Shown: positions 3,098 through 53,406 of the stretch, in pieces
Position numbering within the stretch: position 1 is the stretch's first letter
Layout of the letters: every line of letters starts with the position of its first letter
Translations under genes and position numbers: made by a program
NCBI GenBank assembly: GCA_009779935.1
Contig: WRAX01000005.1
Coordinates: forward strand, 24,248-88,247
Direction of reading: 5' to 3'
DNA from: Defluviitaleaceae bacterium
GTDB lineage: Bacteria; Bacillota; Clostridia; Lachnospirales; WRAX01
Length of the DNA stretch: 64,000 bases
Notes under the pieces: generated by a model
Told to the model about the DNA's origin: nothing
The model's database searches: none
What the model saw: only the letters and a program-made list of their open reading frames with translations

Positions 3098-3110
3098 TAC
3101 ATCTAATATC

Positions 3111-3142
3111 CTTTTCCATGATTGAGAATGGAATTGGCATAA
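3111..3142. repeat. 32-nt repeat, copy 1 (second copy at 55862-55893)
   Basis: CTTTTCCATGATTGAGAATGGAATTGGCATAA; 31/32 identical to 55862-55893, same orientation; contains TTCCAT..ATGGAA hairpin. Confidence 0.8.
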
Positions 3143-3249
3143 CAGCATCCCCCCCAAGCTTACAGTTGCGCTTGGGGGGAATTGCCATTAAAGTTTGCCT
3201 TGACAAGTGCCGATATAATATTGTAAACTATATTAACGTGTAACAGCCC

Positions 3250-3972
3250 ATGGAAGGGGGCAGGCTTGTGATAACCAGCTTGTTTTATTATGGACATTAT
3301 CGGGATTTTTTGTCACGCAGCGGCGGCGGCAATAAAAATGTAAACCCTAACGGAAGCATCTACAACCGCCAACATATCCAGCAGGCGCATAAGGTGGCAG
3401 AATCATCCATACTTCTCAATAAAAACGACAATATGCGCACCAAACAATTCATTGCAAACCTTACCGTAAACGTGGTGCAGTTAAAAGATGCTACAAAGCG
3501 GCTTTCTTTTGATGCGGGCAATTTGGGCAACTTGCGCTCGGCTGTTAGTTATGAAAAGCATTTGCAGTGGATGGATGCAGATTTGCAACGGTTTGCCGCC
3601 ACATATAATAATATAGGAATCCTATCCCAAGATATGGGGCATTCGGGTGCTTTGGGCAATTTACAGCACAGCATACGCAATATTGCCCAAGATAATAAGG
3701 TACTGCTATCCCATGTTGGTATTGTGGAAATGGGCGGGCAAGGCTTAACATACCACGGCATCGGCAATGCCAACACCCGGGAAATTGCCCGTGCAGCAAG
3801 CGAGGCCTTAAAGGCCGGCTATGAAGCTGCAAGGGATTTTTTGATACATCCCATGGCAACCCATCTGGAATTTAGGGATTTGGGCTATTATTACAATTAT
3901 ACCATAGGTGCTATGCCGCAGGATACAGTAAGATTGATAGAATCGGGCATTTTAATTGATAGGGTGATATAA
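3250..3972 (+). CDS. hypothetical protein
   Basis: 240-codon ORF, end overlaps the start of the next gene (ATAATG); RBS-like GGAAGGGGG precedes an alternative GTG at 3268; no motif recognised. Confidence 0.5.
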   Translation: MEGGRLVITSLFYYGHYRDFLSRSGGGNKNVNPNGSIYNRQHIQQAHKVAESSILLNKNDNMRTKQFIANLTVNVVQLKDATKRLSFDAGNLGNLRSAVSYEKHLQWMDADLQRFAATYNNIGILSQDMGHSGALGNLQHSIRNIAQDNKVLLSHVGIVEMGGQGLTYHGIGNANTREIARAASEALKAGYEAARDFLIHPMATHLEFRDLGYYYNYTIGAMPQDTVRLIESGILIDRVI

Positions 3973-30214: not shown

Positions 30215-31549
30215 ATGAAAACGATTTTGTTGACATTTGCTTTATTTTTTTCGATGGCGGGCATTGCCCCTGTTAGCGTAGAAACCTTGGATGGACAAGC
30301 CCGAAGGCAAGCTGTGATGGAAGCCAATTTGGAAGAATGGACAATTCTTTTCTTGTCGTGGGAAGTTTTTGATGAGGAAAATTTCCAAGCCCCACCCCGT
30401 TTGATGGTGGAGTTTTTAGCAGAATCTTTTACGGATATGTATGCGGATGATTTTGGATTTAACCTACCCGCATTAATACAAGAAGCGGGGTACCCCGCAG
30501 AGCTTTTTGTGGATTATATGCTGGAAATAATGACCCATCCCGAATATGCAAGGATTTATATACAGGCATTTGGCATAGCGTGGGTAGAGCGGGCCATTGC
30601 AATGATGCTGGATGACTTGATGGAAATTTATCAAATTGGCGGGCCGGAATATCTTGTGCCTTTTTTTAGCTATATGCAGGTGTTTTATGTGGGCACAGAA
30701 ATGCAGGCCCCGCCCCGCCCTGTGTGGCATTTTACACCACCCACCCGTGAAGAAGTGGAAGACGCACTAAACACCGCCCTTGCCCGCCATGGTGTAGATT
30801 TGGCGGGCTATCTATACACCACCCGTGGACATTCTTTGGAATATTTTATGGATTATTTTATGGATTATTTGATGTGGCTTATTGACTATGATGGCCAATT
30901 GTTTGCCATGGCTTATGGCCACAACTGGCTTGCCCAACTAATGGACGAAATTGTTGGGGAAATTGTGGAATTTCAGGATATGTGGGTGGTAAGCATCGTT
31001 TCTTCTGCCGTAAAAGTTTTGGGTGTGGAGGATGCTATTTACTTCGTATTACAGCTTTTTGACTTAGTTTGGAGCGATGAGCATTTTGACGCCATATACA
31101 CCAACCCATATCTGGAAGAGATTTTGGCAGATTTTACCGTGATGGATGAAGCCTTTCTTAGCAGGCTGTTAAACATGCCCTTGCAAGAAAGGCCAAGCAA
31201 TGCCGTTTTATCAACCATAACACAGGATGATTTGGAGGTGCGCCACAGCTTTTCCCCAATATCCGTCCCCATGTTTCTTTTTGAAGGGCATGTGTATGGG
31301 GCGGCGATGAATGTGTTTTTTCGCAATGAAAGCGAAAGTGCCGCACACATCAACTTGCTGATTATGGATGAGGCAGGCAACAGCCAAGGTATTGAAGAGG
31401 TTGTAGATGCAGGCAGTGATTTTGTGCTCCAACTGCCTGTCGGATGGCACTTGGTGGCGGCAATTATAATACCCACCCAAGGTGATTTTGATGGCAAAAT
31501 TGCAGGCGAATTTGCTTTTCGCTTTACCCATGGCTCTATTAACCAATAA
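30215..31549 (+). CDS. secreted acidic hypothetical protein
   Basis: 444 aa; signal peptide MKTILLTFALFFSMAGIAPVSV; internal YFMDYFMDYLMW tandem; RBS GGGAGG. Confidence 0.6.
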   Translation: MKTILLTFALFFSMAGIAPVSVETLDGQARRQAVMEANLEEWTILFLSWEVFDEENFQAPPRLMVEFLAESFTDMYADDFGFNLPALIQEAGYPAELFVDYMLEIMTHPEYARIYIQAFGIAWVERAIAMMLDDLMEIYQIGGPEYLVPFFSYMQVFYVGTEMQAPPRPVWHFTPPTREEVEDALNTALARHGVDLAGYLYTTRGHSLEYFMDYFMDYLMWLIDYDGQLFAMAYGHNWLAQLMDEIVGEIVEFQDMWVVSIVSSAVKVLGVEDAIYFVLQLFDLVWSDEHFDAIYTNPYLEEILADFTVMDEAFLSRLLNMPLQERPSNAVLSTITQDDLEVRHSFSPISVPMFLFEGHVYGAAMNVFFRNESESAAHINLLIMDEAGNSQGIEEVVDAGSDFVLQLPVGWHLVAAIIIPTQGDFDGKIAGEFAFRFTHGSINQ

Positions 31550-31561
31550 AGCCAAATACAA

Positions 31562-31610
31562 AACACCATTACGGGGTTTGTCCGTCCCGCAATGGTGTTT
31601 TATATTTTTT
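31562..31610 (+). terminator. terminator; last core feature before the AT-rich island
   Basis: Arms AACACCATT-CGGG/CCCG-AATGGTGTT then T-rich tract. Confidence 0.6.
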
Positions 31611-31625
31611 GTAATTATCCCGTTA

Positions 31626-31889
31626 ATGGAGAAATTTCCAACCGAGAAAAAGATCGTTGCCCATTTTTTGACTATTCGCTATCCAGATGATGTAACTTGC
31701 AATTATTGTGGCCCTACAAAATTATATCCACTTAACAAAAGTATCAAGGTATTTAGGTGTAATGGTTGTACAAATAGCTTCTCCCCTCTCTTTGAAAAAT
31801 CATCAACAGACTTGCGTGAGTGGTTTTATGCCATATACCTATTTCTAAACGGTAAAAGGGGCGTTTCTGGCTTGCCAAATACAAAGTGA
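31626..31889 (+). pseudogene. IS1595-family transposase, N-terminal zinc-ribbon fragment only
   Basis: MEKFPTEKKIVAHFLTIRYPDDVTCNYCG...FRCNGCTNSFSPL...LREWFYAIYLFLNGKRGVS matches the IS1595 N-terminal pattern; the DDE domain is absent. Confidence 0.7.
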
Positions 31890-33686: not shown

Positions 33687-33749
33687 ATGAAATCAAAAAC
33701 AAAGTTAACTGTGAGCATCTTTGGTGGCAGTAATGCTGTTGTTTGTTAA
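33687..33749 (+). CDS. 20-aa ORF, candidate short hydrophobic signalling peptide
   Basis: RBS GGAGGG 6 nt upstream; MKSKTKLTVSIFGGSNAVVC; lies about 250 nt upstream of the XRE-TPR regulator. Confidence 0.25.
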   Translation: MKSKTKLTVSIFGGSNAVVC

Positions 33750-33994
33750 GTTAAAAGATGGCCAAAATTGTGGCATGTGATTTATAACATCTTCTAAGTG
33801 ACCATTATGCAATATTGTTACACCAAATGATAAGCTGCATTAATAGCTTATGCATGCTCTTCCGCAAGGTGATGGAGTGTGGTGTAGTTGAAAATATTAG
33901 CTTTACTATCAGTGGCAAATATGATACAATATAAGTACAAAAAATTACAAAAAAACTGAAAATCCCCTATTTTATGGGGGAGGGGGGAGAAATT

Positions 33995-34917
33995 ATGAAA
34001 ATGTACATTGGTAAAATGGTTAAGAAGTTGCGCTCGGAAATGGGCATGAATCAAGAAGAATTAGCAGGACGGCTTTTTATGTCAAACAAGAGGCTTTCAC
34101 GTATTGAAACCGATAAGGCGAAGGTGGATGTTTGGCAAGCCATAAAAATATTAGAACTTGCCGGTCAATCTTTTGAAGATTTTTGGTTGATGCCCTTGGA
34201 TTCTTCTGATTATGACGGATACTTGATTTATCGAAATTTAAGAAAGAGTTTGCGTGATAATAACAATGCTGAAGCGGAAAGTTTTTTGGAGCAATTCAAG
34301 AAAAGTCCAATATCCAAAGAACCTTTTGCCCAGCAAACCATAGCATGGGCAGAAATTAGGCTAAACAACAATTTAAGCCATGAGAAGCCATAAAAAAATT
34401 ATATGAGGCATTGCGTATGTCAAACCCAGAGTTTGATGAATCCAAGATAGCCGAATACCGCTTACAACACCAAGAAATACGAATACTGATGAGCATCGCA
34501 GTGAGAAGTAACAAAATCGGTGACAAGGATAAAGCGATATACATAACGGAAGCCCTAATTAATAACAGGGAAAATCTCCGAACTTCGGAGGATGATAAAG
34601 CAAGCTTCCTGCCTGCGCTTTTGTTCAATCTGTCTAATTATCTTGGTCAAGCTGGTAAGATAAGAGAATCCTTGCAAGCTTGTGACAAAGGCTTAGAAAT
34701 TTGCCGTGAGTATAATCGCTTTGATCTTACACCAGTATTGCTACATAATAAGGCTACTAATCAACGCATGTTAGGAGAAGAAGAACGCATGTACAGAACC
34801 CATCTAATAAGAGCATATCATTCCGCAAATGCCATGGGTCAATTTGATGTGGCCGAAGAGGTCAAAAAAGATGCCGAAGAAAGCTTCGGCATCAACATCA
34901 TGAAGTTTTGGGATTAA
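33995..34917 (+). pseudogene. XRE-HTH + TPR regulator (RNPP-like architecture) split by a frame change
   Basis: HTH part (MKMYIGKMVKKLRSEMGMNQEELA...) stops at 34391-34393; the TPR part is open in the -1 frame from 34384 (EAIKKLYEALRMSNPEF...); together about 300 aa. Confidence 0.55.
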
Positions 34918-35279: not shown

Positions 35280-35460
35280 TTGGTCTTAGTTTCGGCAATA
35301 ACCCTGCCACCGGCAATGGCATCATGGATGTTGGCAGGATGAACTTTTATGTGGAGCAGCAGACGACCTTCAACCTTCTTACCCCCCAACAAATCCACTA
35401 AACTGCGTAGCGCATGCTGTCTTTACGCTTCGGGGGTCGATGATGGTGTAGTTAGGTTTA
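35280..35460 (-). mobile_element. IS5-family transposase remnant (left, inverted copy)
   Basis: Minus-strand translation gives NYTIIDPRSVKTA and GGKKVEGRLLLHIKVHPANIHDAIAGGR in different frames; 35280-35434 is the reverse complement of 37482-37636. Confidence 0.7.
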
Positions 35461-35544
35461 GACTTTTGACCAAGTTTAATTTCGCTTTTTTCACCACACT
35501 ACATGGATTTTTATCATCAAAACGAAAGTGAAGGGGGGGTGCAA

Positions 35545-37137
35545 ATGTTAAAAATTTTAAAAATAATACTAAAAGAGCCGTCATCTAAGATAATTTTGGC
35601 ACTTTATCCTTTAATCGCTTTGCTGTCGGGTATTTTGCTAGTATATAGCAATGATATGCTCAGAAATGTTTTCAACAACCACATAATGCTATTAGAGTTT
35701 AACAACTTTTTATATAGCACCCTGTTTGTAGTTGGACTATTTGTTTCATTATTCCTTTTAAGGGTTGTGAACTCATATATTAAAGAGAAACTTCATCATA
35801 CAGGTGCGAATAATTTAATTGAGCACTACACAAACAAACTACTAAAAGCAGACTATTCATACTATCACAAAAAAGAAGCACCAGCAATTTGGGATAAGTT
35901 AGAAAGGTCTACTATTGGTACAGGGAATTTCTTTGGGTCGCTCATAAGTTCTATTAGTACAATGATAAGTTTTGTTTTTTATGCAATTGTTATATTTAGA
36001 ATAAATTTATTTGCAGGATTGATAACAATGATAGCTATTCCTATTTATTTCTTTCTTACTGTCGGATTTAATAAAAATTTCATGTCCTTGCAGATGGAGC
36101 TGGCTAATAGCATGGGGCAACTGGCTGTGGTGGGTCAAGAACCTCTCGAAAATGTGGTGAACGTAAAAACAAAAAATGCATATGGTTTTTTTGTGAATCG
36201 AATAATGAAGATACAAAGAAAAATATCCAAACTGTTTCGTAAGTTCAATGTTTTGTCTGAATATCATAATGGCATAACGGGTCTTGTGTCTGTCGTTGTA
36301 CCCATCTTGGTATTATTTGCTACATTGCAGGTTTCGGACACATTTACAACAGATATGGGGACAGTGCTGATACTTTATATTAACATACCGCTGTTTTTAA
36401 GTGGATTTACAAGCATTTACAAGAAATATATTATGTACAAAACCCACAGACATTTCATAAACGGTCTCCTAGAATTTGACGATATGCCCATAGAACATAG
36501 CGGGGAGATAGAAATAAATGACTTTGAAAACCTAGAAGTAAAAGGGGTTAAGGTGCGCTTTGACGATACACGAATTATCAGTATTCCTGATTTCGTTGTG
36601 AAAAAAGGAGAAAGAGTAATGATATTTGGGGAGAGCGGAATAGGCAAATCAACCATCTTCAACATTATAGTTGGCATTCATACAGAATACGAGGGCGATA
36701 TAATAATTAACGGTATTAATTTGCGAAATATCAGCACCTATTCCTTGCGTAATGTTTTTGGTATCGTTTTACAATCTGTCAATATTTTCTCCATGTCACT
36801 GGAAGACAATATCTTGTTAGGCATTCCCAATGACAATTTGAATGAATCAGTTAGCCTTGCCAACCTTAAAGAACAAATGGATTTTAAGGTCGACCAGGAA
36901 CTAAATAACAAAGTTGTGTCGGGTGGCGAAAAATCGCGTGTTGGGTTAGCTCAGACCCTAGCTCGCAATACCCAAGTGTTGATGATAGACGAAACGTTTT
37001 CCAGTATAGATGAAGGAATGGAAGAGCGTATAGTTAAGGGGCTTTTTGAAATGCATCCACACAAAACCTTTATATGTATCAGCCATCGCAGTTCAAGCCA
37101 GACTTATTTTGATAAATTCGTGGACTTCAATTTATGA
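35545..37137 (+). CDS. ABC exporter, fused TMD-NBD half transporter
   Basis: ATG 35545 after RBS GAAGGGGGGG; 5-6 TM then Walker A GESGIGKST, signature VSGGEKSRVGLA, Walker B VLMIDETFSSID; no N-terminal C39 peptidase domain. Confidence 0.85.
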   Translation: MLKILKIILKEPSSKIILALYPLIALLSGILLVYSNDMLRNVFNNHIMLLEFNNFLYSTLFVVGLFVSLFLLRVVNSYIKEKLHHTGANNLIEHYTNKLLKADYSYYHKKEAPAIWDKLERSTIGTGNFFGSLISSISTMISFVFYAIVIFRINLFAGLITMIAIPIYFFLTVGFNKNFMSLQMELANSMGQLAVVGQEPLENVVNVKTKNAYGFFVNRIMKIQRKISKLFRKFNVLSEYHNGITGLVSVVVPILVLFATLQVSDTFTTDMGTVLILYINIPLFLSGFTSIYKKYIMYKTHRHFINGLLEFDDMPIEHSGEIEINDFENLEVKGVKVRFDDTRIISIPDFVVKKGERVMIFGESGIGKSTIFNIIVGIHTEYEGDIIINGINLRNISTYSLRNVFGIVLQSVNIFSMSLEDNILLGIPNDNLNESVSLANLKEQMDFKVDQELNNKVVSGGEKSRVGLAQTLARNTQVLMIDETFSSIDEGMEERIVKGLFEMHPHKTFICISHRSSSQTYFDKFVDFNL

Positions 37138-37140
37138 TTA

Positions 37141-37800
37141 GAACCCACTTTCAATAAAAGTCCTGTTTGTAGTGGGTGGCCTGCAGGTGCTTGCGAGTAA
37201 CTCAGAACCCGTTTTCAATAAATCCCCAATCCTGCCGATATACAATGATAAACAGGATGTGAAAACATATGAAATATCGCACCAAATACCCAATGACCTT
37301 ACCGCCAAGCAATGGAGCTCCATAAAACACTTATTCGAGAAAGGAAATCGTGGCAGTCATTTCCGTACACATAGCAAGCGAAAACTTGTTGATGCCGCAC
37401 TTTACCTTAACAAGGCTGGATGCCATTGGAGGCAGTTGCCAAAAGATTTTCCTAAGTGGCAGACTGTGCATTCATTCTGCTCCCGAAGCGTAAAGACAGC
37501 ATGCGCTGCACAGTTTAGGGGATTTGTTGGGGGGTAAGAAGGTTGAAGGTCGTCTGCTGCTCCACATAAAAGTTCATCCTGCCAACATCCATGATGCCAT
37601 TGCCGGTGGCAGGGTTGTTGCCGAAACTAAGACCAAATACCCCACAGTCAAGGGTATTGTTGGTGGTGCCGGTTTTCGTGGCACTTTCAAGAAAGCCCCA
37701 GAAGCGATCTTAGTGAATTTGATTTTGGCTTTGGAGTTTTCGGCAAAAAGAACCCCCCACAAATCGGCGGCCCCGGCGGCGGCAACTGGACTATAATACC
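37141..37800 (+). mobile_element. IS5-family element remnant with internal deletion (right copy)
   Basis: N-terminal domain LTAKQWSSIKHLF...LYLNKAGCHWRQLPKDFPKWQTVHSF joins directly to RSVKTA; later KKVEGRLLLHIKVHPANIHD in another frame; two GAACCCnnTTTCAATAAA copies at 37141 and 37205. Confidence 0.7.
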
Positions 37801-39547: not shown

Positions 39548-40954
39548 GTGGCTTTATTGCATAACAATTTAATAATAAATAAAAACAGCGAAAGATTTAC
39601 ACCTTTTCTAATCAACCTACTGTCCGGAAGAAGGCGATTGCTTAAAGATGATGAATTTCAACTCATAAAATCCATGGCATTAAAACAGGACTTGGCGGAC
39701 TATACTGAGGATGAGTTAATTTTATTCGGAAACTTAAAGGCGGAGAAGCAACTTTTGGAAGAGAATGAACGCATAATGATTGAAGAGAAGATGAATGATA
39801 TAGGTTATTTTCATACAAACACGGACATTCCTGATGAAATTGAATTTTCAATTCACTTAACGTGGAAGTGCAATATGAGTTGCTCCTACTGCATTGCCGG
39901 CTCGTATGTTGGCAATGATTTGACCATAACGTCAGAGCATGTGGATAGCATCTATAACTTCTATCTAAATTTTATGAGCGAAGCTGAGCTTCAAGCAAAG
40001 GTTAAGAGCATTGGAATATCTGGCGGCGAACCCTTGCTGAACTCTGAAACTGTTGGTGCCCTGAATTACATAAATAAAAAATGGCCAAATGCTAAGTTAG
40101 GAATACTTACAAATGGTGTGAATTTGTTGAAATTCTATCAGCACTTACCTTTGAGAAATATCGAGGAAGTTCATGTTTCTTTAGATGGCTTAAAAGAGAC
40201 TCATCTGGATAGGTGATACAGTAACGAAAAAGTTTCACCAGATATCTACGATAATATAATAGGTGGCATAAAAAAACTTTTAGAAGATGAAATTTCAGTA
40301 ACGATTAAAAGCTGCATTGATAAAAATAATTATAGAGAACACCAAGAATTTAAGAGCTTCTTAAAAGAAGAGGGTATTACCACATCATCTTTTTGTACAC
40401 ATCAGAATTCTCATATAATGGACTTTAATAATCATTTAAACATAGATGAAAACTCCAATAGCGTAGAGGACATACGAAGAATAAGGGAATTTGTCTTTCC
40501 TGACCTTGCCTACATGCCACCTTTTTCTGACCTTGCTATTTTATATCAGATGATGAGTCGAATAAGTGACGAACCTTTCATGCCAAAGCGCATGAGGTGC
40601 AGTAGCGGCTTCTTATCAAAATACGCATTTGCACCAAATGGAAAAATATATTTTTGCACCTGCAACACTGCGAGTTCAGGAATGATAGGAGAATATTATC
40701 ATCAAATGTCAATCGATAACTCTGTGATATCTGGGCTTGCGCACAGGAGTGTGATGCAAAGTGATGAGTGTAAAAAATGCCCATATAAATTTGTTTGTTT
40801 GGGTTGTTGTCCGAAAAACTCAGAAGGACAGCTTGCAGATATGACAAAGATGACCTGTGGTGTATTTGGGTTTCCTGAAATTTTAGATAATATTGAGTTT
40901 GACTACCGCACAATTGCAAATGTCAAAAATAACTCAGATAGAAAGGTGGTTTGA
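39548..40954 (+). pseudogene. radical SAM/SPASM peptide maturase 1, single in-frame TGA
   Basis: CNMSCSYC (CxxxCxxC), GGEPLL, C-terminal SPASM Cys pattern (YFCTC...ECKKCPYKFVCLGCCP); ORFs 39548-40216 and 40418-40954 share a frame that is open across 40217-40417. Confidence 0.8.
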
Positions 40955-40956
40955 CC

Positions 40957-42530
40957 ATGAAGAGATTTTTGCTTTCCACTCTGGCGTTCTTCATGTTGCT
41001 ATTTTTTGTTGCTTGTAGCAACAATGAATCGGAAGCTGATGACTACAATGACAACCACGAAAACGAAGCGAAAGCTATAATGGTGGTTGATATCGAGTTT
41101 AATAATGCCAATCCAATAATGGCTCGCATAACCAACTATGCTGTAACAGCACAAATCGGAAACAGAGCTTATTTTTTTCATGATGCTGATGAAGCTGCCA
41201 CAGAATTTGTTAATATTGCAGAAGCCATAATACTGCAGCTGGAAAATTACATAGCAATACCATACTTTCGACTGCAAATTTATAACACACCTAATCCTAA
41301 AAACTATCGATTTAGCCATGTGGAGATCAGTGTAAATTTTGATAACAACGATACCTTTGGATGGCTCGCCAACCAACTTTCCCGTAACCACTTGCCCATG
41401 TGGCTGTCGGTAGGGTTGGAAGCTTACGTAAAAACGAATTTAGGCATTTTTGCACCAACCGACAGTAGCTTTTTATCAGGTACTCATTTTAGCGACTTAT
41501 CATTCGCTCCTAATATGCAGCGAACCACCGAAAGAAACATTGCTATTAATATGGCTTATGATTTTACAAGCCACTTATCGGAATCAGACATACTATTAGA
41601 TCTTGTTGCATTGTATCAAACAGGTCATACGTATCAAGCAAATGAAAAAGCATCACGGCATTTTTATAACCACTTCGGGTGGCATATGCACACAGCCATG
41701 ATAAACATGGTCAACTCAACGATTGCGATAACAAGTGGAGTAGATGTCATAACCTTCTTTTTCAATTGCCTGAGCGACATACCGCACATTAATGATATTG
41801 CAAACTACATAGAATATATACGCAATGCGATTGATTTTACTGTGGATTTTATGGCGCAGTTTACTGATTTTGAGGCTGGTGATATAAGGGTTGATATTTA
41901 CTATGATGAGGAAGCCACAATAGCTTTCGCATTTAATGACTGGATAACCATAAGAGGGGCTTTAATATTAACTGGATGGCTCACGAAGTGGTGCATGCGG
42001 TTCTATATTGGGTGTATAGCCAGCAGGGTATTCGTCCACCCCGTCATCTTGAAGAAGGATTTGCCATGTATGTTGATTCCATTTTTATCCTTTCGGAAGA
42101 ATTTGACCATCAACTTGCCCATTTGAGCCATCTTGAAAATGAATTTGGTGAAAATGCTCTCAGAAACATGGTCAGTAAAGAGATTGACTTTGCTTGGCAC
42201 TTTATATCACACTATCGTCTAACCCGAATGGATTATTACTACACGGGGGATTTTGGGCATCGCATCCCATACTCAGAAGTGGGGTCGCCATACCACATCC
42301 CAGCTATTAACAGGCACGAAACGGCTGCTTCTTTTGTGATATACCTTATACACACTCATGGCATCGATAGCTTTGTACATGTACTTTGGGATACCCACAA
42401 TTTTTATCATACATACGGAAGGGATATACATGGTATGGTTGAAGAATGGCGGGAGTTTTTGCACTACTTTGTTGAGAATCATGAATATTATTACGAATGG
42501 GAATCGATATCCCAAAGCTTTTGGGGATAA
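40957..42530 (+). pseudogene. MA-type (HExxH) metallopeptidase-like lipoprotein 1, frameshifted
   Basis: Lipobox LLFFVAC; LPMWLSVGLEAYV; frame change at the G4 run 41956-41959; downstream frame carries MAHEVVHAV...LEEGFAMYV. Confidence 0.65.
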
Positions 42531-42572: not shown

Positions 42573-42886
42573 ACCAAGAAAATATGGGGTTGACCAACTC
42601 ATGCAAGCACTTACAAAGGAGGAAAAAACATGAAATCAAGCGATCAAATGACATCTATAATCGACTTAATGTGGGAGCCAGAAGAAACAGTGGAACTATT
42701 GTCCCCTACAATGACGCAGCAGTGTATGGATATGAGTTGTTATCCTGGCATTACACTCCCTTGGCTGTGTATGTCATGTTTTCCAATGAGCAGTAATCGA
42801 AATTGGATTTGTTAGTTAAAAGCTGAGCAAAGAAGCTGCTGCGTTACAAATACATCAGCGGTTGGTCAACCCTATATTTTCTTGGT
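42573..42886. repeat. 26-bp inverted repeat pair flanking precursor gene 1
   Basis: ACCAAGAAAATATGGGGTTGACCAAC 42573-42598 and GTTGGTCAACCCTATATTTTCTTGGT 42861-42886; 25/26 complementary. Confidence 0.85.
42630..42815 (+). CDS. Cys-rich precursor peptide 1 (61 aa)
   Basis: RBS AAAGGAGG; MKSSDQMTSIIDLMWEPEETVELLSPTMTQQCMDMSCYPGITLPWLCMSCFPMSSNRNWIC. Confidence 0.7.
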   Translation: MKSSDQMTSIIDLMWEPEETVELLSPTMTQQCMDMSCYPGITLPWLCMSCFPMSSNRNWIC

Positions 42887-42901: not shown

Positions 42902-43117
42902 ATGGAAAAGAGTTTAGATACAGCAAACTCAATAACATCTATCATCGACTTGATTTGGGAGGTAGATGACGTAGCAGAAGTGGTTGTGCCAATGATGAAC
43001 AAGGCTTGCATAGGCAATAGTTGCAGCATGAATACAAGGTCTCCACAAAATCCTCCCGCTTCCACCTTGGGCGGGTCCTCAAGGTGCATTAAATCCACAA
43101 AAAGGAGTGGCGTTCAC
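42902..43117 (+). CDS. Cys-rich precursor peptide 2, no stop codon before the next gene
   Basis: RBS GGAGG; MEKSLDTANSITSIIDLIWEVDDVAEVVVPMMNKACIGNSCSMNTRSPQNPPASTLGGSSRCIKSTKRSGVH runs in frame into the lipoprotein ATG at 43118. Confidence 0.6.
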
Positions 43118-44539
43118 ATGAATGTAGCTAAAATTTCATCAAGATTAAAGTGTATTAGTAGGTTGCTTATTGCTATATCGGCATGTGTAGCATTAATACT
43201 ACTATCTGCTTGTAGCGAAGAAGCTAATGTTGCAGAACATTACAACCCAGAACCCACTATCATGGTAGAATTTGTCGAAACAAACCCCATAATACAGAGA
43301 ACCACAGGATATACAATCACCACACAGGTGGGTCGCAGAACATATCTATTTGAACAAGATGACCCAGTGGCTAACACCGACTTCATTAATACCGTAGAAG
43401 CTATAATCAATGGACTGGACCAGTTTATGGACATACCATACTTCCAACTACGTATACGTCACACCACAAACCCGCAAAATTACCATTTTTCTGCAACAGA
43501 GATTAGCTTTAACCTTGACAACGACGATACCTTTGGATGGCTTGCGCATATTTTGAGCCGTGGCAGTATGCCCATGTGGTTGTCGGTTGGATTAGAGGCT
43601 TATGTTAGGGCAGGATTGGGGTTGTTTGCGCCTGCTTCGCACAACCCTTCATTTGCATTGAATAATTCGGTATTTTTGCCTTATCTCTGGGGCACGGAAG
43701 AGCACACACAAGCTATTAATGCAGCTTATCATTCAGTGGTAACAAATGGTCACTTAGAAGATGTTATAAATCACATGCCACAATTTTGGCTATCTTTCAA
43801 TTTAATAAACAACAGCATTACTGCCACCAAAGATATGCTCACAGTAAACTTTGTTTTTGAGCATATCGGCGACCTCATATCTCTTGACGATATTGAGCAA
43901 TATATAGCTTATATATCCGATGCCAAAATGTTTGTAACAGACTTTTTTACTCAGCACAGGAATTTTGAGCTTTCTCCGATAGAAATTACCATAAATTATA
44001 CCAACACCAACACTTTTCCATTGGACATGTCGCTTCCTCGACGAATTTACATAAATGATAAGAGTTATGTTTCTGCAACGCCCGCACTGTTGGCTCACGC
44101 AGTGCTTTTGGATATTGATTCAGAAAATTTGCCAGTTGGTGCATTGCGCCATGGGATTTCCAACTACTTAAGAATCAACTTTAACGCTTCTGATAATTTC
44201 ACTCATGTGCTGCCTCATACAGATGCCGGCGATAGAAGTAAACGTCAAGAGCATTATCGTAATTTGCGTATTAATGGGAGTCACGCTTTAGCTTACAACC
44301 ATTTCGCCAACGGTTATCCTAACTATTTTAGTTACAACTCCAGTGCGGGTAATTTTAATATCGGCACTACCGATACTGCCCATTCCTTTGGCTTGTATTT
44401 GATAGATACATATGAAGTAGAATATTTTTTGGATGCCATATGGAATGTTGAAAATTTTGTAAATGTTTATGGTAGGGATGTTCACGGCATGATTGATGAA
44501 TGGATGATTTTTTTGAAAGATTTATTCAGCACCGAATAA
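43118..44539 (+). CDS. MA-like lipoprotein 2 (catalytic motif degenerate)
   Basis: Own RBS AAGGAG; lipobox ALILLSAC; paralogue of 40957 (FGWLAHILSRGSMPMWLSVGLEAYV); HExxH position reads AHAVL. Confidence 0.7.
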   Translation: MNVAKISSRLKCISRLLIAISACVALILLSACSEEANVAEHYNPEPTIMVEFVETNPIIQRTTGYTITTQVGRRTYLFEQDDPVANTDFINTVEAIINGLDQFMDIPYFQLRIRHTTNPQNYHFSATEISFNLDNDDTFGWLAHILSRGSMPMWLSVGLEAYVRAGLGLFAPASHNPSFALNNSVFLPYLWGTEEHTQAINAAYHSVVTNGHLEDVINHMPQFWLSFNLINNSITATKDMLTVNFVFEHIGDLISLDDIEQYIAYISDAKMFVTDFFTQHRNFELSPIEITINYTNTNTFPLDMSLPRRIYINDKSYVSATPALLAHAVLLDIDSENLPVGALRHGISNYLRINFNASDNFTHVLPHTDAGDRSKRQEHYRNLRINGSHALAYNHFANGYPNYFSYNSSAGNFNIGTTDTAHSFGLYLIDTYEVEYFLDAIWNVENFVNVYGRDVHGMIDEWMIFLKDLFSTE

Positions 44540-44604: not shown

Positions 44605-44793
44605 ATGGACTTAAAAAAGATTGAAATTTTGATTACACCGGTCATCGACCTTATATGGGAAGTTGATATTATTGAAAACACAGAATTTTTGCCAACCAAC
44701 ATGGTTGTAACTTGCATGGATATTAGTTGTGGTGGTTTTGGTCTTGTTTGTGGGGGTTCCTGGAAAACCCCCATGTGTCGCCCGTTAGGTTAA
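44605..44793 (+). CDS. Cys-rich precursor peptide 3 (62 aa)
   Basis: RBS AAGGAGG 8 nt upstream; MDLKKIEILITPVIDLIWEVDIIENTEFLPTNMVVTCMDISCGGFGLVCGGSWKTPMCRPLG. Confidence 0.7.
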   Translation: MDLKKIEILITPVIDLIWEVDIIENTEFLPTNMVVTCMDISCGGFGLVCGGSWKTPMCRPLG

Positions 44794-44885: not shown

Positions 44886-46260
44886 ATGAAGCTTATAAGG
44901 CATGTAATTCCAGTGGACATAAACAGTGAAGAAAAGCTGATGATTAACTCCTTAAACGGTATTATTGATAAAATTAGTGTACCTGTTTATGAAATCTTTC
45001 GAAAGTGGAGAGGGGTTGAGGAGATAGTTCCCGAATGCGAGGTGGAGGTCGCCTTATTTGAAAGCCTCAAAATGCGTGGGTATCTATCAAATAGCTCAAA
45101 AGATGAGGATGTTGTGAAAGAGAAACTTGTAGCTCGCTTACGGGAAATAAGCACCAAGCAAAGAGAGGCGTGCAGGAGCATCACCTTTATCCCTTCATAT
45201 AACTGCAACTTCCGATGCCCTTATTGCTTTGAAGGAGAAAACACTCTTAAAAAGGGAAATTATGACACCAGATCAAGTGGATGCCGCATTAGAATTGGCT
45301 GGTGAAAACTTGGAAAGCGTGGGGTTTTTTGGTGGAGAGCCTTTGTTGGCATCCAATAAAAAAATATTAGAATATATTATATCAAAAACCAAAGGGAAAA
45401 CTTTTAGTATCACCACCAATGGATATCACTTGGAGGAGTTTTTTGAAATCTTGTCACCACTAAAATTTTCTGAAATCTTGGTTACACTGGATGGAGGAGA
45501 GGACACTCACAATAGTCGTAGGTTTTTGGTGGGCGGCAAACCGACATATAGCAAAATTTTGAAGGGTATTGAAAAGTGCCTGTCAAATGGCATGCCCATA
45601 TGCATTAGGATGAATCTGGAAAGTAGTAATCTGGAAGAAGGTCAACTCTTGCAACAAGAACTTATGAATAGATTCCAAAAGCATGGAGGATTGGTTTCAT
45701 TTGAAATGGGAACCATTTTTGGAATACCCGAAGAAGACAAAGTAAACATTCTCACCCAGCTATATAAAACAGATGCTATATGTTCGCCAGAAGAAAAGCG
45801 AAAAAGAAATAGCATGGTGGGTAGATTTAATCCCATAATAAATAGCATGACCATAGGCACAAAGCTACGACCAACATACTCATTTTGCTCCGCTCACATA
45901 AGCAGCTTCATTGTTGATCCCTATGGAATGATATATGCCTGTCTCCCATCAGTCGGCAAACCCACCCTATCCATCGGCACATACTACCCCAACATCGAAT
46001 TTAAAGAAAAAAGCATTTACACCCGCAATATAGAAACAATCTCCGAATGCAGAGAGTGTGTCTATTCATTACTTTGTGGCGGGGGTTGCCCTTTGGGAGT
46101 TATGAGATGTGAAGATGATATAATGAAACCGGAGTGCTTCTCCATTAAAAACCAAGTGCATAACATATTGCCCAGGTTTTACAACATTAACGAAGATGCT
46201 AAAAATAAAAACAAAGAAACCAAAAACCAAAACCAGCCAGCAAAAGCTTGTTCTTTGTGA
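44886..46260 (+). pseudogene. radical SAM/SPASM peptide maturase 2, 1-nt frameshift
   Basis: CNFRCPYC lies in the frame of ORF 44817-45305; GGEPLL and the SPASM pattern (ECRECVYSLLCGGGCP) lie in the +1 frame of ORF 45229-46260; switch within 45236-45260. Confidence 0.8.
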
Positions 46261-46285: not shown

Positions 46286-47266
46286 ATGATGACAAACGCC
46301 CTAATATTAGCTGACATTGAAGGTATCATCGGTGTTAATGAAACATTTGGTGATAATGCCGGTGAATTGTTCACACAAGAAGTGGAGCTATGTATCAATG
46401 TCCTGTTGGAAAACGGCATCCACAAAATCACTGTTTGCGATGCCCATAACAAGGGGGACATGATTTTACCCAGAATTACCGAGGGGCGTGATAATGTCAA
46501 GCTGGTTTCGCAAGTCCGCAGTGTTTGTTTTGCAGAAAAGTATGACTTTGCAATAATGGTTGGATATCATGGAATGGAAGGCAGCCCCGGCATTTGGCCC
46601 CACACATACCGCTATGATATTAAGCAGACTTCTATTTTCGATAAAAGATTAGGAAAAAACATTCCCATTGGCGAGGTGGAGATTGGTGCCAGATGGCTGG
46701 GCTTTCATGGTGTGCCGGTTATTTTTGTATCTGGTGATAGAGAGGCGGCTTACGAAGCCAATCAATTCAACCCATACAGACAAGCTTCTTGTATAAGAAC
46801 ACTCCTTCAAACCGAAGAAATAAAGATTGAAGTTTTGCGTGATAAATTAGTGCAAGATCTCAAATCATCTTTAAAATTGGACTGGGATTTATGCTTGTCC
46901 TGTGATAATAGTCCCATTCTGGTTGAGTTTTACCACTCTGAAACCGCTGATGCCTTAGTGGCAAAGGGATATACCAAATTCATCAACGTAGATGGCAGCG
47001 AGGGCATCACATTCAAAAGCTGTTCTGAACTTGTTAGCGAAATCCATCACATAGCCGGCCTCTTAAATCAAATCGGATTTGAGGTGGAAACCGCCAACAT
47101 CGCTTTCTTAAAAGAGGTACGTGAATTAGCTAAAAATCTTGATAAAGATGCAGTTGCAAATTCGGAGGCCGGGCCACTACTTAGCACCAGCCTTACCCTG
47201 TTGGACAAGGTGGCTCGTGATAAAGTTATGGTGATTTTGAGGAGTATGGTGAATGGAAGTGTATAA
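46286..47266 (+). CDS. M55-family D-aminopeptidase (DppA-like)
   Basis: LADIEGIIG, VCDAHNKG, MVGYHGMEGSPGIWPHT and IGEVEIGARWLGFHGVPVIFVSGD align with B. subtilis DppA motifs as I recall them. Confidence 0.8.
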   Translation: MMTNALILADIEGIIGVNETFGDNAGELFTQEVELCINVLLENGIHKITVCDAHNKGDMILPRITEGRDNVKLVSQVRSVCFAEKYDFAIMVGYHGMEGSPGIWPHTYRYDIKQTSIFDKRLGKNIPIGEVEIGARWLGFHGVPVIFVSGDREAAYEANQFNPYRQASCIRTLLQTEEIKIEVLRDKLVQDLKSSLKLDWDLCLSCDNSPILVEFYHSETADALVAKGYTKFINVDGSEGITFKSCSELVSEIHHIAGLLNQIGFEVETANIAFLKEVRELAKNLDKDAVANSEAGPLLSTSLTLLDKVARDKVMVILRSMVNGSV

Positions 47267-47307: not shown

Positions 47308-48726
47308 ATGACAAAAAACAAAAACAAAAACATCAACCCAATAGCCCGCACCGGCCTCTTAGTTCTGGCGATGGTTCTTTTTCTATTAATACCCACAAGT
47401 TGCGGCAGCCAAAACAATGAAGATGAAACCCGTTTTGTCTTAGAGTCCGACTGCCCTTATCTTTACGACTTCCATTACTTAATACGGCTTATGGAGGATA
47501 CATTTCCTCACTTTGGTGTAGTGTATAGAAATTTTGGAGTGGATGTGAGACAACTGGCAGATGAAGCCATGGAGCGCATCGCAAACCATCCTGGTATGGA
47601 CGACAATATTCTTTTTGATGAAATTGCAGACCTTTTTATTCCACTTTTACCAGTTGTTCATGCGCAGCCCTTATTCTACCAGACCTTTCCACTCTGGAAA
47701 TACAGATTTGGAGGAGCTGGCGTAGGGCAACTAATAAGCGAAGGTAGTGCATTCAATGCAAATACTTTTAACAATGTGCGTTCAATAGAATTTTATGAAC
47801 GCCAAAGGCAAGCCGGATGGGACATGACACCACAAACGGAAGAAGCGTTCGCTTTGCGACCTGCTATACACACTGACCTTGATAATTTTCCTGTACAACC
47901 CGCATGGAATCGAATAGCAGCCACCTATATAATCGAAGAAGGCAGAATTGCTTATATGAACATACCTACTTTTATGCATCATGGCGCAGGCGGAATAGAA
48001 AGGGGAAGTTTGTTTAATTTCTACACAGAAATACAGGATTACGAGCACCTTATTATAGACATTAGAAATAATGGAGGTGGATATACCTTTTTTTGGGAAA
48101 ATAATATCATGCTACCACTATCGAACAATGCGCCCGTTGTACCAATATATAACTTTTTCCCCCAAAGCGAACGTGGCTTAAAGTTTGCACAAATTTTTGC
48201 TGATGACCACTACCAGAAAGGTATAGGAGCAGATTTGGTGACCTCAGAGTCATTTTCTGCCAATTATGCATATCCTATATCTATATCAGAGTTTTTAAAT
48301 GATAGGCAATTTCCATACCTAAACCAATCCGACCTACAATACTTAGGATATGTGGTCCCACTTACCCAAAGTGTAAGAAATCTAAACCCCATGTGGTATG
48401 TGCCGGAAATACCTTTCCATGGTCAAATATGGCTTTTGATAAATCCCGTAAACGCTTCATCTGCCAGCATGTTTGCCCGCCACGCCAAAGATTCTGGTTT
48501 TGCCACTTTGGTGGGGGAGCAAACAGGTGGACATTTTGGTGCTGGGACACTTCGTATTTTCTTCCCCCTACCCAACACAGGCATTATTGTAACTTGGGAT
48601 GTAGGCTACAAAACCGACCAATACGGAAGATCATGGGAAGAATTTAGAGTAATGCCCCACCACCAAAACATGCCTGGTATGGATGCGCTTGAAACTGTGC
48701 TTTTTCTTATTAATGAAGGGTATTGA
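47308..48726 (+). CDS. S41-like peptidase lipoprotein (intact copy)
   Basis: Signal/lipobox LLIPTSC; IIDIRNNGGGY, NASSASMFA, GEQTGG motifs of C-terminal processing peptidases. Confidence 0.75.
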   Translation: MTKNKNKNINPIARTGLLVLAMVLFLLIPTSCGSQNNEDETRFVLESDCPYLYDFHYLIRLMEDTFPHFGVVYRNFGVDVRQLADEAMERIANHPGMDDNILFDEIADLFIPLLPVVHAQPLFYQTFPLWKYRFGGAGVGQLISEGSAFNANTFNNVRSIEFYERQRQAGWDMTPQTEEAFALRPAIHTDLDNFPVQPAWNRIAATYIIEEGRIAYMNIPTFMHHGAGGIERGSLFNFYTEIQDYEHLIIDIRNNGGGYTFFWENNIMLPLSNNAPVVPIYNFFPQSERGLKFAQIFADDHYQKGIGADLVTSESFSANYAYPISISEFLNDRQFPYLNQSDLQYLGYVVPLTQSVRNLNPMWYVPEIPFHGQIWLLINPVNASSASMFARHAKDSGFATLVGEQTGGHFGAGTLRIFFPLPNTGIIVTWDVGYKTDQYGRSWEEFRVMPHHQNMPGMDALETVLFLINEGY

Positions 48727-48880: not shown

Positions 48881-50707
48881 ATGAAACCCCTAACCCTCTG
48901 CAAACCCTATCTACTGCAACATAAATTAAAACTAACCCTATACATAACAATAACCCTATTAGCCACTGCCATATCCATCCTAACCCCCTTCATCATAGGT
49001 AACTTCCTTGATCACCTAATCGAAGGGGGTGATGTGGGGGCTATTTTGCGTTTTTGTGCAATATTTGGTGGGTTGGGGCTTTTGCGTATATTCAAAAACT
49101 ACATAACATCCCTTATATACGTTAGGATGCAAACCCAGATGAGTTACAACTTTCACCATGATATCACAAAACACATCCAAAGCCTTTCACTCTCCTACAC
49201 CAACAATCAAGACAGCACCTATCTAAACCAACGCATAAATAGTGACACAGGCAGCCTGATTGTATTCTGCATAACCATCCTTAACAACGTACTGGTAAAC
49301 CTAATTATGATTATTGCACCCTTTATCATACTGCTAACCATGAACTGGTTTATTACGGTTTTATTGGCCGGCTTTCTTTTGTTATATGCCGTCTTATATA
49401 CGGCCTTCAAAAAACCCATTTACAATGCAGGGTTTCGCTTAAAAGAAGCGCAGGGTAAGTTTTTCTCCACCCTTTTTGAACAATTAAAACACATCAAACT
49501 CATTAAAACAAACTCCATACAGCCCGAAATTAGCCGTAGGACTGATAGTGGATTTGTAAGATTTAAGGCGGCAGCTGTTCACAACCAAAAAGTAAGTTAT
49601 GTGTACTCCGGTATGGATGGATTTATATCCACACTCGCACAGATCGCCTTATTTGTGGTTGGTGGCTTGCAGGTGCTGTCCGGTAATTTCACCATAGGTA
49701 TGTTTACCATCTTTACCAGTTACTTTACCATGATTTTGGGTTCCAGTAGATATTTCTTTGGCCTTGGGGCTTCTTATCAGCACACCCTTGTCGCTTATGA
49801 TCGGGTCAAGGAAATATTGAACCTTAAACCCGAGGGTGGGGGTAGAAAGATAATTGACAGTGTTAGCAAGATACAAGCAACTGACCTAAGTTTTTCTTAT
49901 GCGGTTGGAGATACGAGCCACAGTTTAAGTCAAGACCAAAAAGAAAGGCGAGAAGGAAACAACCGGAAAAAAGATGACCCTCACGAGGGCATTAACTCAC
50001 ATAATATCAAAAATCATAATCCAGCCCTAAATTTCAACGAAACAGGCAGCACTACCAAAGCGAATCCTAAGGTGAACGACATCATCGAAACAAAGCGAAA
50101 AAGGGTTCTTGAAGGACTTAGTATAGAACTAACCAAGGGTAAAATTTATACCCTATCCGGCTCAAATGGCTCGGGCAAGTCCACGCTTATCAGTTTAATG
50201 ATGGGTATGTATGCTGATGAATATGATGGCCGTATAACCTATGACGGCACAGATATTAAAGACATAGACATGATTGCCGCAAGAAGAAGCCTTATTGGAT
50301 TTGCAGAGCAAGAACCTACACTGATAAAAGATTCTATTTTGTTTAACCTTTGTTTTAATGAGTCGCTCGATTCTCTTTGTTCATCAAACCAACGCATCAA
50401 CAATCTGGACAAGCATATGCAAACCCTTGGGATGAATGATTTTATTGATAAAAACGGATTGCATTTCCCGCTAAACGAAAGCAATACCAACACCTCCGGT
50501 GGAGAGAAGCAAAAAATATCCATCTTAAAGGTACTGTTAAAAGACCCACCTGTTATGATTTTTGATGAGCCTACATCTGCACTTGATTCTGATGCCACCG
50601 AAAGGTTTATGGGATATTTGCAGGGTATTAAAAGTAATAAGATTATTGTTATAGTTACGCATGATGGGGTTGTGGAGGAGATGTGTGATGAGAGGGTTTG
50701 TTTGTAA
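48881..50707 (+). CDS. ABC exporter (TMD-NBD) with a hydrophilic insertion at the start of the NBD
   Basis: 6 TM; Walker A GSNGSGKST, signature TSGGEKQKISILK, Walker B VMIFDEPTSALD; no C39 domain. Confidence 0.85.
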   Translation: MKPLTLCKPYLLQHKLKLTLYITITLLATAISILTPFIIGNFLDHLIEGGDVGAILRFCAIFGGLGLLRIFKNYITSLIYVRMQTQMSYNFHHDITKHIQSLSLSYTNNQDSTYLNQRINSDTGSLIVFCITILNNVLVNLIMIIAPFIILLTMNWFITVLLAGFLLLYAVLYTAFKKPIYNAGFRLKEAQGKFFSTLFEQLKHIKLIKTNSIQPEISRRTDSGFVRFKAAAVHNQKVSYVYSGMDGFISTLAQIALFVVGGLQVLSGNFTIGMFTIFTSYFTMILGSSRYFFGLGASYQHTLVAYDRVKEILNLKPEGGGRKIIDSVSKIQATDLSFSYAVGDTSHSLSQDQKERREGNNRKKDDPHEGINSHNIKNHNPALNFNETGSTTKANPKVNDIIETKRKRVLEGLSIELTKGKIYTLSGSNGSGKSTLISLMMGMYADEYDGRITYDGTDIKDIDMIAARRSLIGFAEQEPTLIKDSILFNLCFNESLDSLCSSNQRINNLDKHMQTLGMNDFIDKNGLHFPLNESNTNTSGGEKQKISILKVLLKDPPVMIFDEPTSALDSDATERFMGYLQGIKSNKIIVIVTHDGVVEEMCDERVCL

Positions 50708-51661: not shown

Positions 51662-52372
51662 ATGTCCAACGAAATGCCTATTTCAGTATTGATTAGAGGT
51701 GACACCCACATTCTTTACTTTGATGATGGCAAAATTGACGATGACGGCAATATAGAAACGGCCTATATACGGGTCACCCAAGGTGTTCTTTGTGCAGGCG
51801 ACAGCGAAGTTAAGGTTTCTGTTAATGACTATATTTCTAAGGCAGATTGGATATTACTTAGAGAATATAGACAAGCGGCTCAAAACGACTTTCTTAGGCG
51901 TGATACCTTTATTGATGTCAGCGAGGAAGTTAAAATGATTGCTTCGGGATATATTGAGAATAATGGGCTTGCCCTTGAGGGTGTGGAGGATTTGCGTGGT
52001 GCTGGGCTCATCCTTAATTATCGCCCGAGCAAAATCTTTCCTTGCGATTGCGACGATGCTGGATTTTTTGGAAGAAGGGTTCATCTTACCGGCTTTACGC
52101 ATACCCAAAAAACACCGTGGTTTTACAGCGGGATATCAGACAGGATAACCCTTTTTGTTTGCAACAGGGGCAAGGATGATGTGATGATTGGACTTGAAAG
52201 AAGTCCTGATTCGGCAAGTATCATTAAAGATGCTCAGGAGATATGCGTTGGCCCGGGGCAAACCGCAGAAATTACTCCTTACAAGTTTTCGCAGTTTATA
52301 AGGCTTACAGCAAGCTCTGAAAAAAGAAGGATAAACTGCGAGGTATGGCATCAAGCGCAGCTAAAAGTCTGA
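51662..52372 (+). CDS. hypothetical protein, no signal peptide
   Basis: RBS AAAGGAGG; 236 aa; C-terminal about 70 aa similar to the C-terminus of the next ORF. Confidence 0.6.
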   Translation: MSNEMPISVLIRGDTHILYFDDGKIDDDGNIETAYIRVTQGVLCAGDSEVKVSVNDYISKADWILLREYRQAAQNDFLRRDTFIDVSEEVKMIASGYIENNGLALEGVEDLRGAGLILNYRPSKIFPCDCDDAGFFGRRVHLTGFTHTQKTPWFYSGISDRITLFVCNRGKDDVMIGLERSPDSASIIKDAQEICVGPGQTAEITPYKFSQFIRLTASSEKRRINCEVWHQAQLKV

Positions 52373-52463
52373 TAATTTGTATAACGCCCCATTTTGAGAC
52401 AAGAACCCTTTTGCATATACAAGCATAGTATGTACTACAGTCAAGAAAAAGGCTGAAAACACA

Positions 52464-52988
52464 ATGCAAAAGGAGGTGAAAAAGATAAATTCACTTGTTT
52501 TTAACACAACTGCCGAAGAGCTGCGTACCAGTGTTTATGGCTATAACCAAGGCACAAGCACGTTGCAGCTGTTGCAGTTGAATAGCGATGGAGAATTGCT
52601 TGTTTCGGGAGATTTTAGCCTGTCAAGTAACGTAACAATCGCAAACACGCTGCTGACTGTGTTGGTGTCCGGCAATCAATTCACAGCAAACACTCAAACG
52701 CTGGATGGTGTAACATCAACAGGCATTGCTCTTGCTGCAACGGATATTTCGCAATTGAAAACAGCGACCATGTTTGTTGACAACACAGATGCCAATCCGA
52801 TTACTGTAACTTTGCAATTAAGCCCTGATGGAACAACGTTTTTTGACGACCCCCATTATACGGATGTTGTAGTAGACGGAACAACTTCTACTATTATGGT
52901 AGTCGGAATCTTTGCACAGTATGCACAAATCGAATATGATGCGGGAGCAGGGGCTACATTCGCTGTGTATTACAATGGGCAAGCGTAG
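52464..52988 (+). CDS. hypothetical Ser/Thr-rich beta-type protein
   Basis: 174 aa; TMFVDNTDANPITVTLQLSPDGTTFFDD... segment parallels TLFVCNRGKDDVMIGLERSPDSASIIKD... of the previous ORF (I recall a DUF6385-like family, unverified). Confidence 0.6.
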   Translation: MQKEVKKINSLVFNTTAEELRTSVYGYNQGTSTLQLLQLNSDGELLVSGDFSLSSNVTIANTLLTVLVSGNQFTANTQTLDGVTSTGIALAATDISQLKTATMFVDNTDANPITVTLQLSPDGTTFFDDPHYTDVVVDGTTSTIMVVGIFAQYAQIEYDAGAGATFAVYYNGQA

Positions 52989-53040
52989 GGCAGCAACCAA
53001 CACTTTTTTGAAATTTGTCTTGCAAGGAGGTGAAATAGAA

Positions 53041-53406
53041 ATGTTTGATTTTGAACGTGAAAACAGACACGGAAGAGAGCGTGATGCCGTGCGTGAACAT
53101 GAGCATGAATGCAGACACGAACACAGGAATGAGCATGAGCATTTTACAAAGCACAGAAAGGTTTGCACTGTAGAAACAAGCGAAGATGTGACCATCACAA
53201 CACCTGTCATGCTTAATGCTTATGTAGATAGCTGCAAAGTTGAAATTGAGTGCAGAGGACACGATATAATAAGAGAGTCTTCTCGCAGACCAAATCACAG
53301 CAGGTTTAAAATACGCCAGAAAATGCATGTACACATCCCTATTGACTTCGTTGCTGAATGCAATGTGGGTGAAGGTCGAGTGGATTTCGATTTTGATGAG
53401 GAGTAA
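53041..53406 (+). CDS. His/Glu/Arg-rich hypothetical protein (121 aa)
   Basis: RBS AAGGAGG; MFDFERENRHGRERDAVREHEHECRHEHRNEHEHF...; the track ORF from 52912 is an upstream extension. Confidence 0.55.
   Translation: MFDFERENRHGRERDAVREHEHECRHEHRNEHEHFTKHRKVCTVETSEDVTITTPVMLNAYVDSCKVEIECRGHDIIRESSRRPNHSRFKIRQKMHVHIPIDFVAECNVGEGRVDFDFDEE

Follow-up and report, generated by a model that had tools for sequence, protein, structure and literature searches.

The window analysed here, 64,000 nucleotides of a contig from a termite-gut Defluviitaleaceae bacterium MAG, contains a low-GC stretch at about 31.5-56 kb, where the GC content is 0.37-0.42 versus 0.43-0.50 outside. This island contains two distantly related RiPP sub-clusters; their paralogues are only 24-39% identical, and a recent tandem duplication was rejected on this ground. 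The main RiPP genes lie on the forward strand. An intact precursor peptide gene (44605-44793), coding for 62 aa with the leader TPVIDLIWE and the Cys-rich core TCMDISCGGFGLVCGGSWKTPMCRPLG, is found directly upstream of a maturase gene, hereafter maturase 2. A second precursor gene (42630-42815, 61 aa) has the leader SIIDLMWE and a Cys-rich core. A third precursor-like reading frame (42902-43117), with the leader SIIDLIWE and a core beginning KACIGNSCS, is stopless and runs into the following lipoprotein gene; either its stop was lost or its core was frameshifted. The precursors share the leader (T/S)(P/I)IIDL(I/V/M)W(E/N), their Cys-rich cores vary, and no model matched them in a Pfam and NCBIfam profile search. 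The lipoprotein (43118-44539; likely start ATG 43118, MNVAKISS..LLSAC) has no assigned function, and its homologues of 474-556 aa occupy the same position in related clusters. Maturase 2 is followed by three intact genes, coding for a DppA-like M55 peptidase (46286-47266), which lies directly after the maturase in relatives too, an S41 peptidase of 472 aa (47308-48726) and an ABC exporter with fused membrane and ATPase domains (48881-50707).

In intact relatives the layout comprises an RNPP-type HTH regulator (303-310 aa), an S41 peptidase and/or the 474-556-aa lipoprotein, then the precursor (59-75 aa), the rSAM/SPASM maturase, the M55 peptidase and the ABC exporter. Some of these clusters are located on plasmid-like contigs (Rep3, ParE, BrnT) or beside a transposase; the contigs of the closest intact ones, L008 and L009, carry genes for a Rep3 replication protein, ParE and a BrnT toxin, which suggests plasmid carriage of the RiPP family. 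A literature search found nothing specific on Defluviitaleaceae RiPPs.

Maturase 2 (44886-46260, forward strand) is an rSAM/SPASM RiPP maturase gene disrupted by one inserted base, whose repaired product has 457 aa. Frame 0 is open from 44817 and stops at 45303-45305; its likely start is ATG 44886, preceded at 8 nt by GGAGG, and the resulting ORF (44886-45305) codes for 139 aa, annotated at NCBI as MCL2854532.1, "hypothetical protein". This N-terminal fragment comprises an RRE-like domain, strand beta1, the CxxxCxxC motif (C107/C111/C114) and a 17-aa out-of-frame tail: frame 0 ends in CNFRCPYCFEGENTLKKG before the tail, and its translation, ...SYNCNFRCPYCFEGENTLKKGNYDTRSSGCRIRIGW and stop, is made up of ...SYNCNFRCPYCFEGENTLKKG plus 17 unrelated residues. 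The +1 frame, open from 45229 and closed by a stop at 46258-46260, reads LKEKTLLKREIMTPDQVDAALELAGENLESVGFFGGEPLL... and, across the junction, ...KREIMTPDQVDAALELAGENLESVGFFGGEPLL...; from ATG 45262 it codes for a C-terminal fragment of 332 aa (45262-46260; P0001, MCL2854533.1, "radical SAM protein") with the remaining rSAM barrel, from GGEPLL onward, and a 7-Cys SPASM region. The DNA at the break, CTTAAAAAGGGAAATT (45246-45261), is composed of CTT (45246-45248), an A5 run (45249-45253), GGG (45254-45256), AAA (45257-45259) and TT, followed by ATG (45262-45264). Taking a single base out of A5, of GGG or of A3 restores the 457-aa ORF. In tblastn comparisons residues 1-123 fall in one frame and residues 121-457 in the next. 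The gene is otherwise perfect, with all family-invariant residues kept and no second lesion in 457 codons; judged on sequence, such a two-frame arrangement is far beyond what chance would give. At the same time, a gene with a single defect would also be expected of an artefact or of an arrangement that still functions.

A preliminary description of this DNA had given the two frames, a one-nucleotide lesion just after CxxxCxxC that is repaired by taking out one A, and colinearity of the repaired enzyme with a first maturase of the locus, and had proposed a comparison with homologues. All of this holds: when re-read from the window the frames have the coordinates and sequence described, the break lies 8 residues past the last Cys of the motif, and the repaired protein aligns without gaps to its homologues and is colinear with maturase 1, though at only 24% identity.

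The repaired protein matches PF04055 (Radical_SAM, E = 1.2e-24, residues 102-242) and also Fer4_12; the signature of the superfamily, C107-x3-C111-x2-C114 with the GGEPLL core, is present, motif and core being in different frames as sequenced. No Pfam SPASM model was reported at E <= 0.01; the 7-Cys SPASM motif of peptide maturases is nevertheless complete (C334-x12-G347-x4-C352; C388-x2-C391-x5-C397-x3-C401; C417), and its cysteines are invariant in the homologue alignment. The best NCBIfam alignments are full-length and to rSAM/SPASM RiPP maturases (Clo7bot, PapB, CefB, TIGR04463, SCIFF), at scores below the curated whole-protein cut-offs: 119 of 600 bits for Clo7bot (TIGR04334), 115 of 340 for PapB (NF047865), 111 of 600 for CefB (NF038107) and 80 of 425 for SCIFF (TIGR03974). 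In a PDB sequence search the thioether synthase CteB (5WGG, E = 8e-16) ranked first, followed by SkfB. The AlphaFold2 model (pLDDT 85.5, pTM 0.84) ranks CteB, TigE, anSME and SuiB highest in Foldseek. At its N-terminus three strands (7-11, 16-21, 26-31) are followed by helices 32-41 and 52-64, with pLDDT above 90; this predicted domain is typical of RiPP recognition elements, and the full-length Foldseek alignment to CteB spans the region. Strand beta1 (98-101), the cluster loop (105-120) and helix alpha1 (128-141) come next in the model, so that residue 122/123, where the break falls, belongs to the loop joining the cluster motif to alpha1.

Comparison with homologues indicates which base is in excess. 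At E <= 1e-5, 763 database proteins match the repaired maturase 2; the best full-length matches, of 440-450 aa, have E = 1e-200 to 1e-150, and the good homologues, each encoded in one ORF of 430-460 aa, belong for the most part to Defluviitaleaceae MAGs from termite guts, with others from Alkaliphilus transvaalensis and Tepidimicrobium xylanilyticum. No gap is found at the junction, where the family consensus is CFEGExxxKKEVITPEQIDAAL. In the closest homologue, P0002 (67% identity), the DNA reads ACC TTG AAA AGG GAA ATA; its site, TTGAAAAGGGAAATA, has A4 with the same GGGAAAT, versus A5-GGG-A3 in the window. Since this homologue reads TTG-AAAA-GGG-AAA-TA, the lesion corresponds to a change from A4 to A5, and the simplest history would be the insertion of one A. 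Among about 25 related loci examined by tblastn the maturase-2-type gene is always single-frame, in contrast to the two frames of the window, with one exception, L032 (Ga0123355_10017051). There, at 3001-3728, an internal deletion with a frame change has taken out about 22 codons, the first CxxxCxxC cysteine among them; this maturase copy, too, is decayed. With the T7 frameshift in L006, L007, L011 and L012, described below, it shows that such maturases have decayed repeatedly in related loci.

The lesion falls in a homopolymer and is the sole defect of maturase 2, as would be the case if the organism carried A4, and with it an intact 457-aa enzyme, and the extra base came from sequencing or assembly. 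An identical 100-nt break site is found in three separately built contigs: ENA ERZ27257297 k141_1640169 (105 kb, with a MEGAHIT-style name), the Logan per-run assembly of SRR5215140 (8.6 kb) and JGI 3300010369 Ga0136643_10042209 (6.7 kb). All three code for exactly the same 332-aa C-terminal fragment, and the NCBI annotation of the MAG calls the same two ORFs. These concordant contigs appear to share a single termite colony as their source, and possibly a single read set, and they count as independent assemblies rather than independent samples. The JGI contig (L003) was considered as an independent strain and rejected, its 8 mismatches all being in the last 80 nt, beside the paralogous DUF6385 genes; these paralogues, of 236 aa and 174 aa, lie in tandem (51662-53406) downstream of the RiPP cluster, and the divergence there is probably due to assembly collapse between them. 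IMG 3300010369 is the P1 gut segment metagenome of Labiotermes labralis, a soil-feeding termite (PMC7800795), and this series of termite metagenomes was run on Illumina HiSeq 2000/2500 at JGI (PMC7024585). In 24 kb of intact window genes there are 139 other A/T runs of at least five bases, all in frame. Outside the island Pfam coverage is full-length for the housekeeping genes PGM (phosphoglucomutase), Mur ligase, class-V aminotransferase, aspartokinase, GlgB and PheT. Because three assemblies agree, the series is Illumina, a technology that seldom miscounts runs of five bases, and the 139 comparable runs are in frame, an artefact is very unlikely. The neighbouring lesions, moreover, include a base substitution, the TGA of maturase 1 described below, which homopolymer error cannot explain since it is a substitution-type nonsense codon. 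There is thus strong, if indirect, evidence that A5 is the sequence of the dominant population.

Among reversible mutations, indels in short homopolymers are the most common, and minor variants are collapsed by metagenome assemblers; A4 and A5 alleles could therefore coexist in the gut population, as a polymorphism or as on-off switching, with the assemblers keeping the majority path. An intact allele was looked for in several ways. The protein search returned only the 332/343-aa fragment at 100%, the next match being at 67%, and neither the 5.8 billion protein clusters nor the metagenome scans yielded an A4 allele or an intact protein above 67% identity. Metagenome contigs scanned for the exact pattern, with A4-A6 allowed, gave no match, in a collection that apparently lacks the known JGI contig too, and the best match of a protein-guided metagenome scan was at 64%. 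Among the matches listed in a generic-pattern scan of genome contigs, only Alkaliphilus transvaalensis (50%) was useful, and neither the source MAG nor its Defluviitaleaceae relatives were present. Contingency loci typically have tracts much longer than A5, and the other lesions of the island are irreversible. Coexistence of the two alleles is accordingly improbable.

Those other lesions affect several gene classes. The preliminary description had regarded both maturases of the locus as broken, and this stands: maturase 1 (39548-40954, forward strand), the distant paralogue, is a single 468-codon frame with CxxxCxxC and the SPASM cysteines present, intact except for a TGA at 40214-40216, where the homologues of L006 and L014 have Arg codons (CGC/CGT). 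An alternative genetic code or TGA recoding was rejected, given the long standard-code ORFs across the window and the alignment of the TGA with Arg CGN. The RNPP-type regulator (33974-34917, forward strand), a single gene of 303-310 aa in relatives, appears to be split between an HTH ORF (33974-34393, 139 aa) and an RNPP_C ORF (34411-34917, 168 aa) in different frames; the frame must change between about 34381 and 34393, immediately ahead of an A7 run. A paralogue of the 545-aa lipoprotein ORF (40951-42530, forward strand) is frameshifted, with ORFs 40951-42126 and 41976-42530 and a switch at about 41937-41990, near a GGGG run. Its downstream part contains HEVVH, an HExxH motif, where the intact copy at 43118-44539 has AHAVL instead, which hints that the lipoprotein family derived from a metalloprotease. 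The S41 paralogue aligns to the C-terminal half only. On the minus strand, at 33717-33865, a short fragment matches residues 265-311 of the 43118-44539 lipoprotein at 73-82% identity and is a relic of a rearranged copy of that gene.

Possible signs of mobility were also observed. At the edge of the low-GC island a 135-aa ORF (31482-31889), an IS remnant, has only the zinc-ribbon domain of an IS1595 transposase, and inverted repeats of 155 nt (35280-35434 and 37482-37636), 97.4% identical, flank an ABC transporter gene (35503-37137), a segment that could be invertible or mobile.

Another possibility is that the insertion is real and function is retained, by a split enzyme produced through restart at ATG 45262, by +1 slippage on CUU-AAA-AAG or by loss of an A in the mRNA. 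ATG 45262, where Prodigal-type callers start the gene, is preceded at 5 nt by an SD-like AAGGGA, the break falls in what the model predicts to be a surface loop, and a tRNA-Lys on AAA would re-pair perfectly one base downstream. A maturase-1-type homologue from another termite-gut organism (L006, 6611-8004) is, in addition, interrupted at a T7 run, about 24 residues past CxxxCxxC, where stop and start overlap in GTGA and a GAGG lies upstream; four contigs (L006, L007, L011 and L012) from at least three samples have this identical split. Against these features, nothing is conserved at the maturase 2 break, since the roughly 25 relatives each encode the enzyme in one ORF and use other codons there. 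The preliminary description had raised programmed frameshifting as something to consider for a conserved indel, and this candidate did not survive: AAA and AAG are common codons (27.5 and 13.7 per 1000 codons), so no slow codon or stop is available in the A-site; the upstream AAGGAG, which simply encodes the conserved FEGE, is separated from CTT by 8 nt, versus 3 nt for the SD in prfB; and the 90 nt downstream of the break fold no better than shuffled sequences (z = -0.12). A dnaX-like -1 shift, for which an SD, 10 nt and U-AAA-AAG are in place, was also rejected, as the -1 frame stops after KKGKL. Appreciable transcriptional slippage needs an A/T run of about 8-9 or more, and A5 is well below this length. 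We know of no split rSAM enzyme cut inside the barrel. Retention of function by any of these routes is unlikely.

The SD-ATG pair just past the break and the independently split maturase-1-type paralogue also prompt a broader idea, in which maturases of this termite-gut RiPP family work as two polypeptides, so that the break is tolerated or even selected; one would carry the RRE and the cluster loop, and the other, possibly made by translational restart, the barrel and SPASM region. Were this correct, a radical SAM enzyme would exist naturally in two parts, divided within its catalytic barrel. We regard it as very improbable.

The evidence as a whole points to ordinary gene decay rather than recoding, and we consider it likely that maturase 2 carries a recent, real one-base insertion and is a pseudogene in a decaying accessory RiPP island. 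One A would have been inserted into an A4 run, changing AAA AGG GAA ATT (K-R-E-I) to AAAAAGGGAAATT eight codons past CxxxCxxC. Translation from ATG 44886 would then give 139 aa, with the putative leader-binding domain, beta1, the radical-SAM cluster loop and 17 wrong residues, and the 332-aa remainder may be translated from ATG 45262. Neither piece alone could be expected to cleave SAM and cross-link the precursor, because one would be without the SAM-binding barrel and the auxiliary clusters and the other without the radical-SAM cluster; with inactive pieces the adjacent Cys-rich precursors would therefore stay unmodified. Loss of function is what we infer for maturase 2 from its sequence, and its lesion would stand beside several others in this low-GC, mobile-element-associated island, in a genome that is losing function.

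The records MCL2854532.1 and MCL2854533.1 are the halves of one disrupted gene, and genome mining would take the locus for a maturase-bearing RiPP cluster though its two maturases are both broken. The case also illustrates how numerous, mobile and often decaying accessory RiPP clusters are in Defluviitaleaceae of the termite gut. By itself the frameshift in maturase 2 raises no new question; the RiPP family, with its IIDLxWE-type leader, rSAM/SPASM maturase, M55 and S41 peptidases, lipoprotein, ABC exporter and RNPP regulator, may merit study in an intact relative such as the P0002, P0003 or P0005 locus.

Among known systems, the break resembles prfB-type +1 frameshifting and slippage rescue in that the frame must change by +1 at a CUU-A-rich site preceded by a purine-rich, SD-like stretch; it differs in that the site is unconserved, without a stop or rare codon in the A-site, with the wrong SD spacing, an A run of only five bases and no stimulatory structure. 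At the level of the cluster, a likeness is found to the RaS-RiPPs with Rgg/SHP, such as the streptide system (SuiB/StrB): in intact relatives an RNPP HTH regulator adjoins the precursor, maturase, peptidase and exporter genes, and SuiB is among the fold matches of maturase 2. From gene adjacency alone, RNPP regulation of the cluster may be inferred. Differently from the RaS-RiPPs, the host is a member of the Defluviitaleaceae, the precursor is another one, M55 and S41 peptidases and a lipoprotein of about 480-550 aa are present, and in the window the regulator is split. The enzyme itself is closest to CteB, the SCIFF/ranthipeptide thioether synthase (PDB 5WGG/5WHY). Maturase 2 differs from CteB and from the PapB, Clo7bot and SCIFF maturases in its scores, far below the family cut-offs, in the precursors with a leader of their own that no Pfam or NCBIfam model describes, and in being frameshifted, its chemistry being a prediction. 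It shares with CteB, PapB, Clo7bot and CefB the association with Cys-rich precursors and full-length NCBIfam alignments, and with CteB in particular a predicted N-terminal RRE-like domain, the CxxxCxxC core and the 7-Cys SPASM region; CteB is both its best PDB sequence match and its best fold match (probability 1.0, TM 0.55-0.61).
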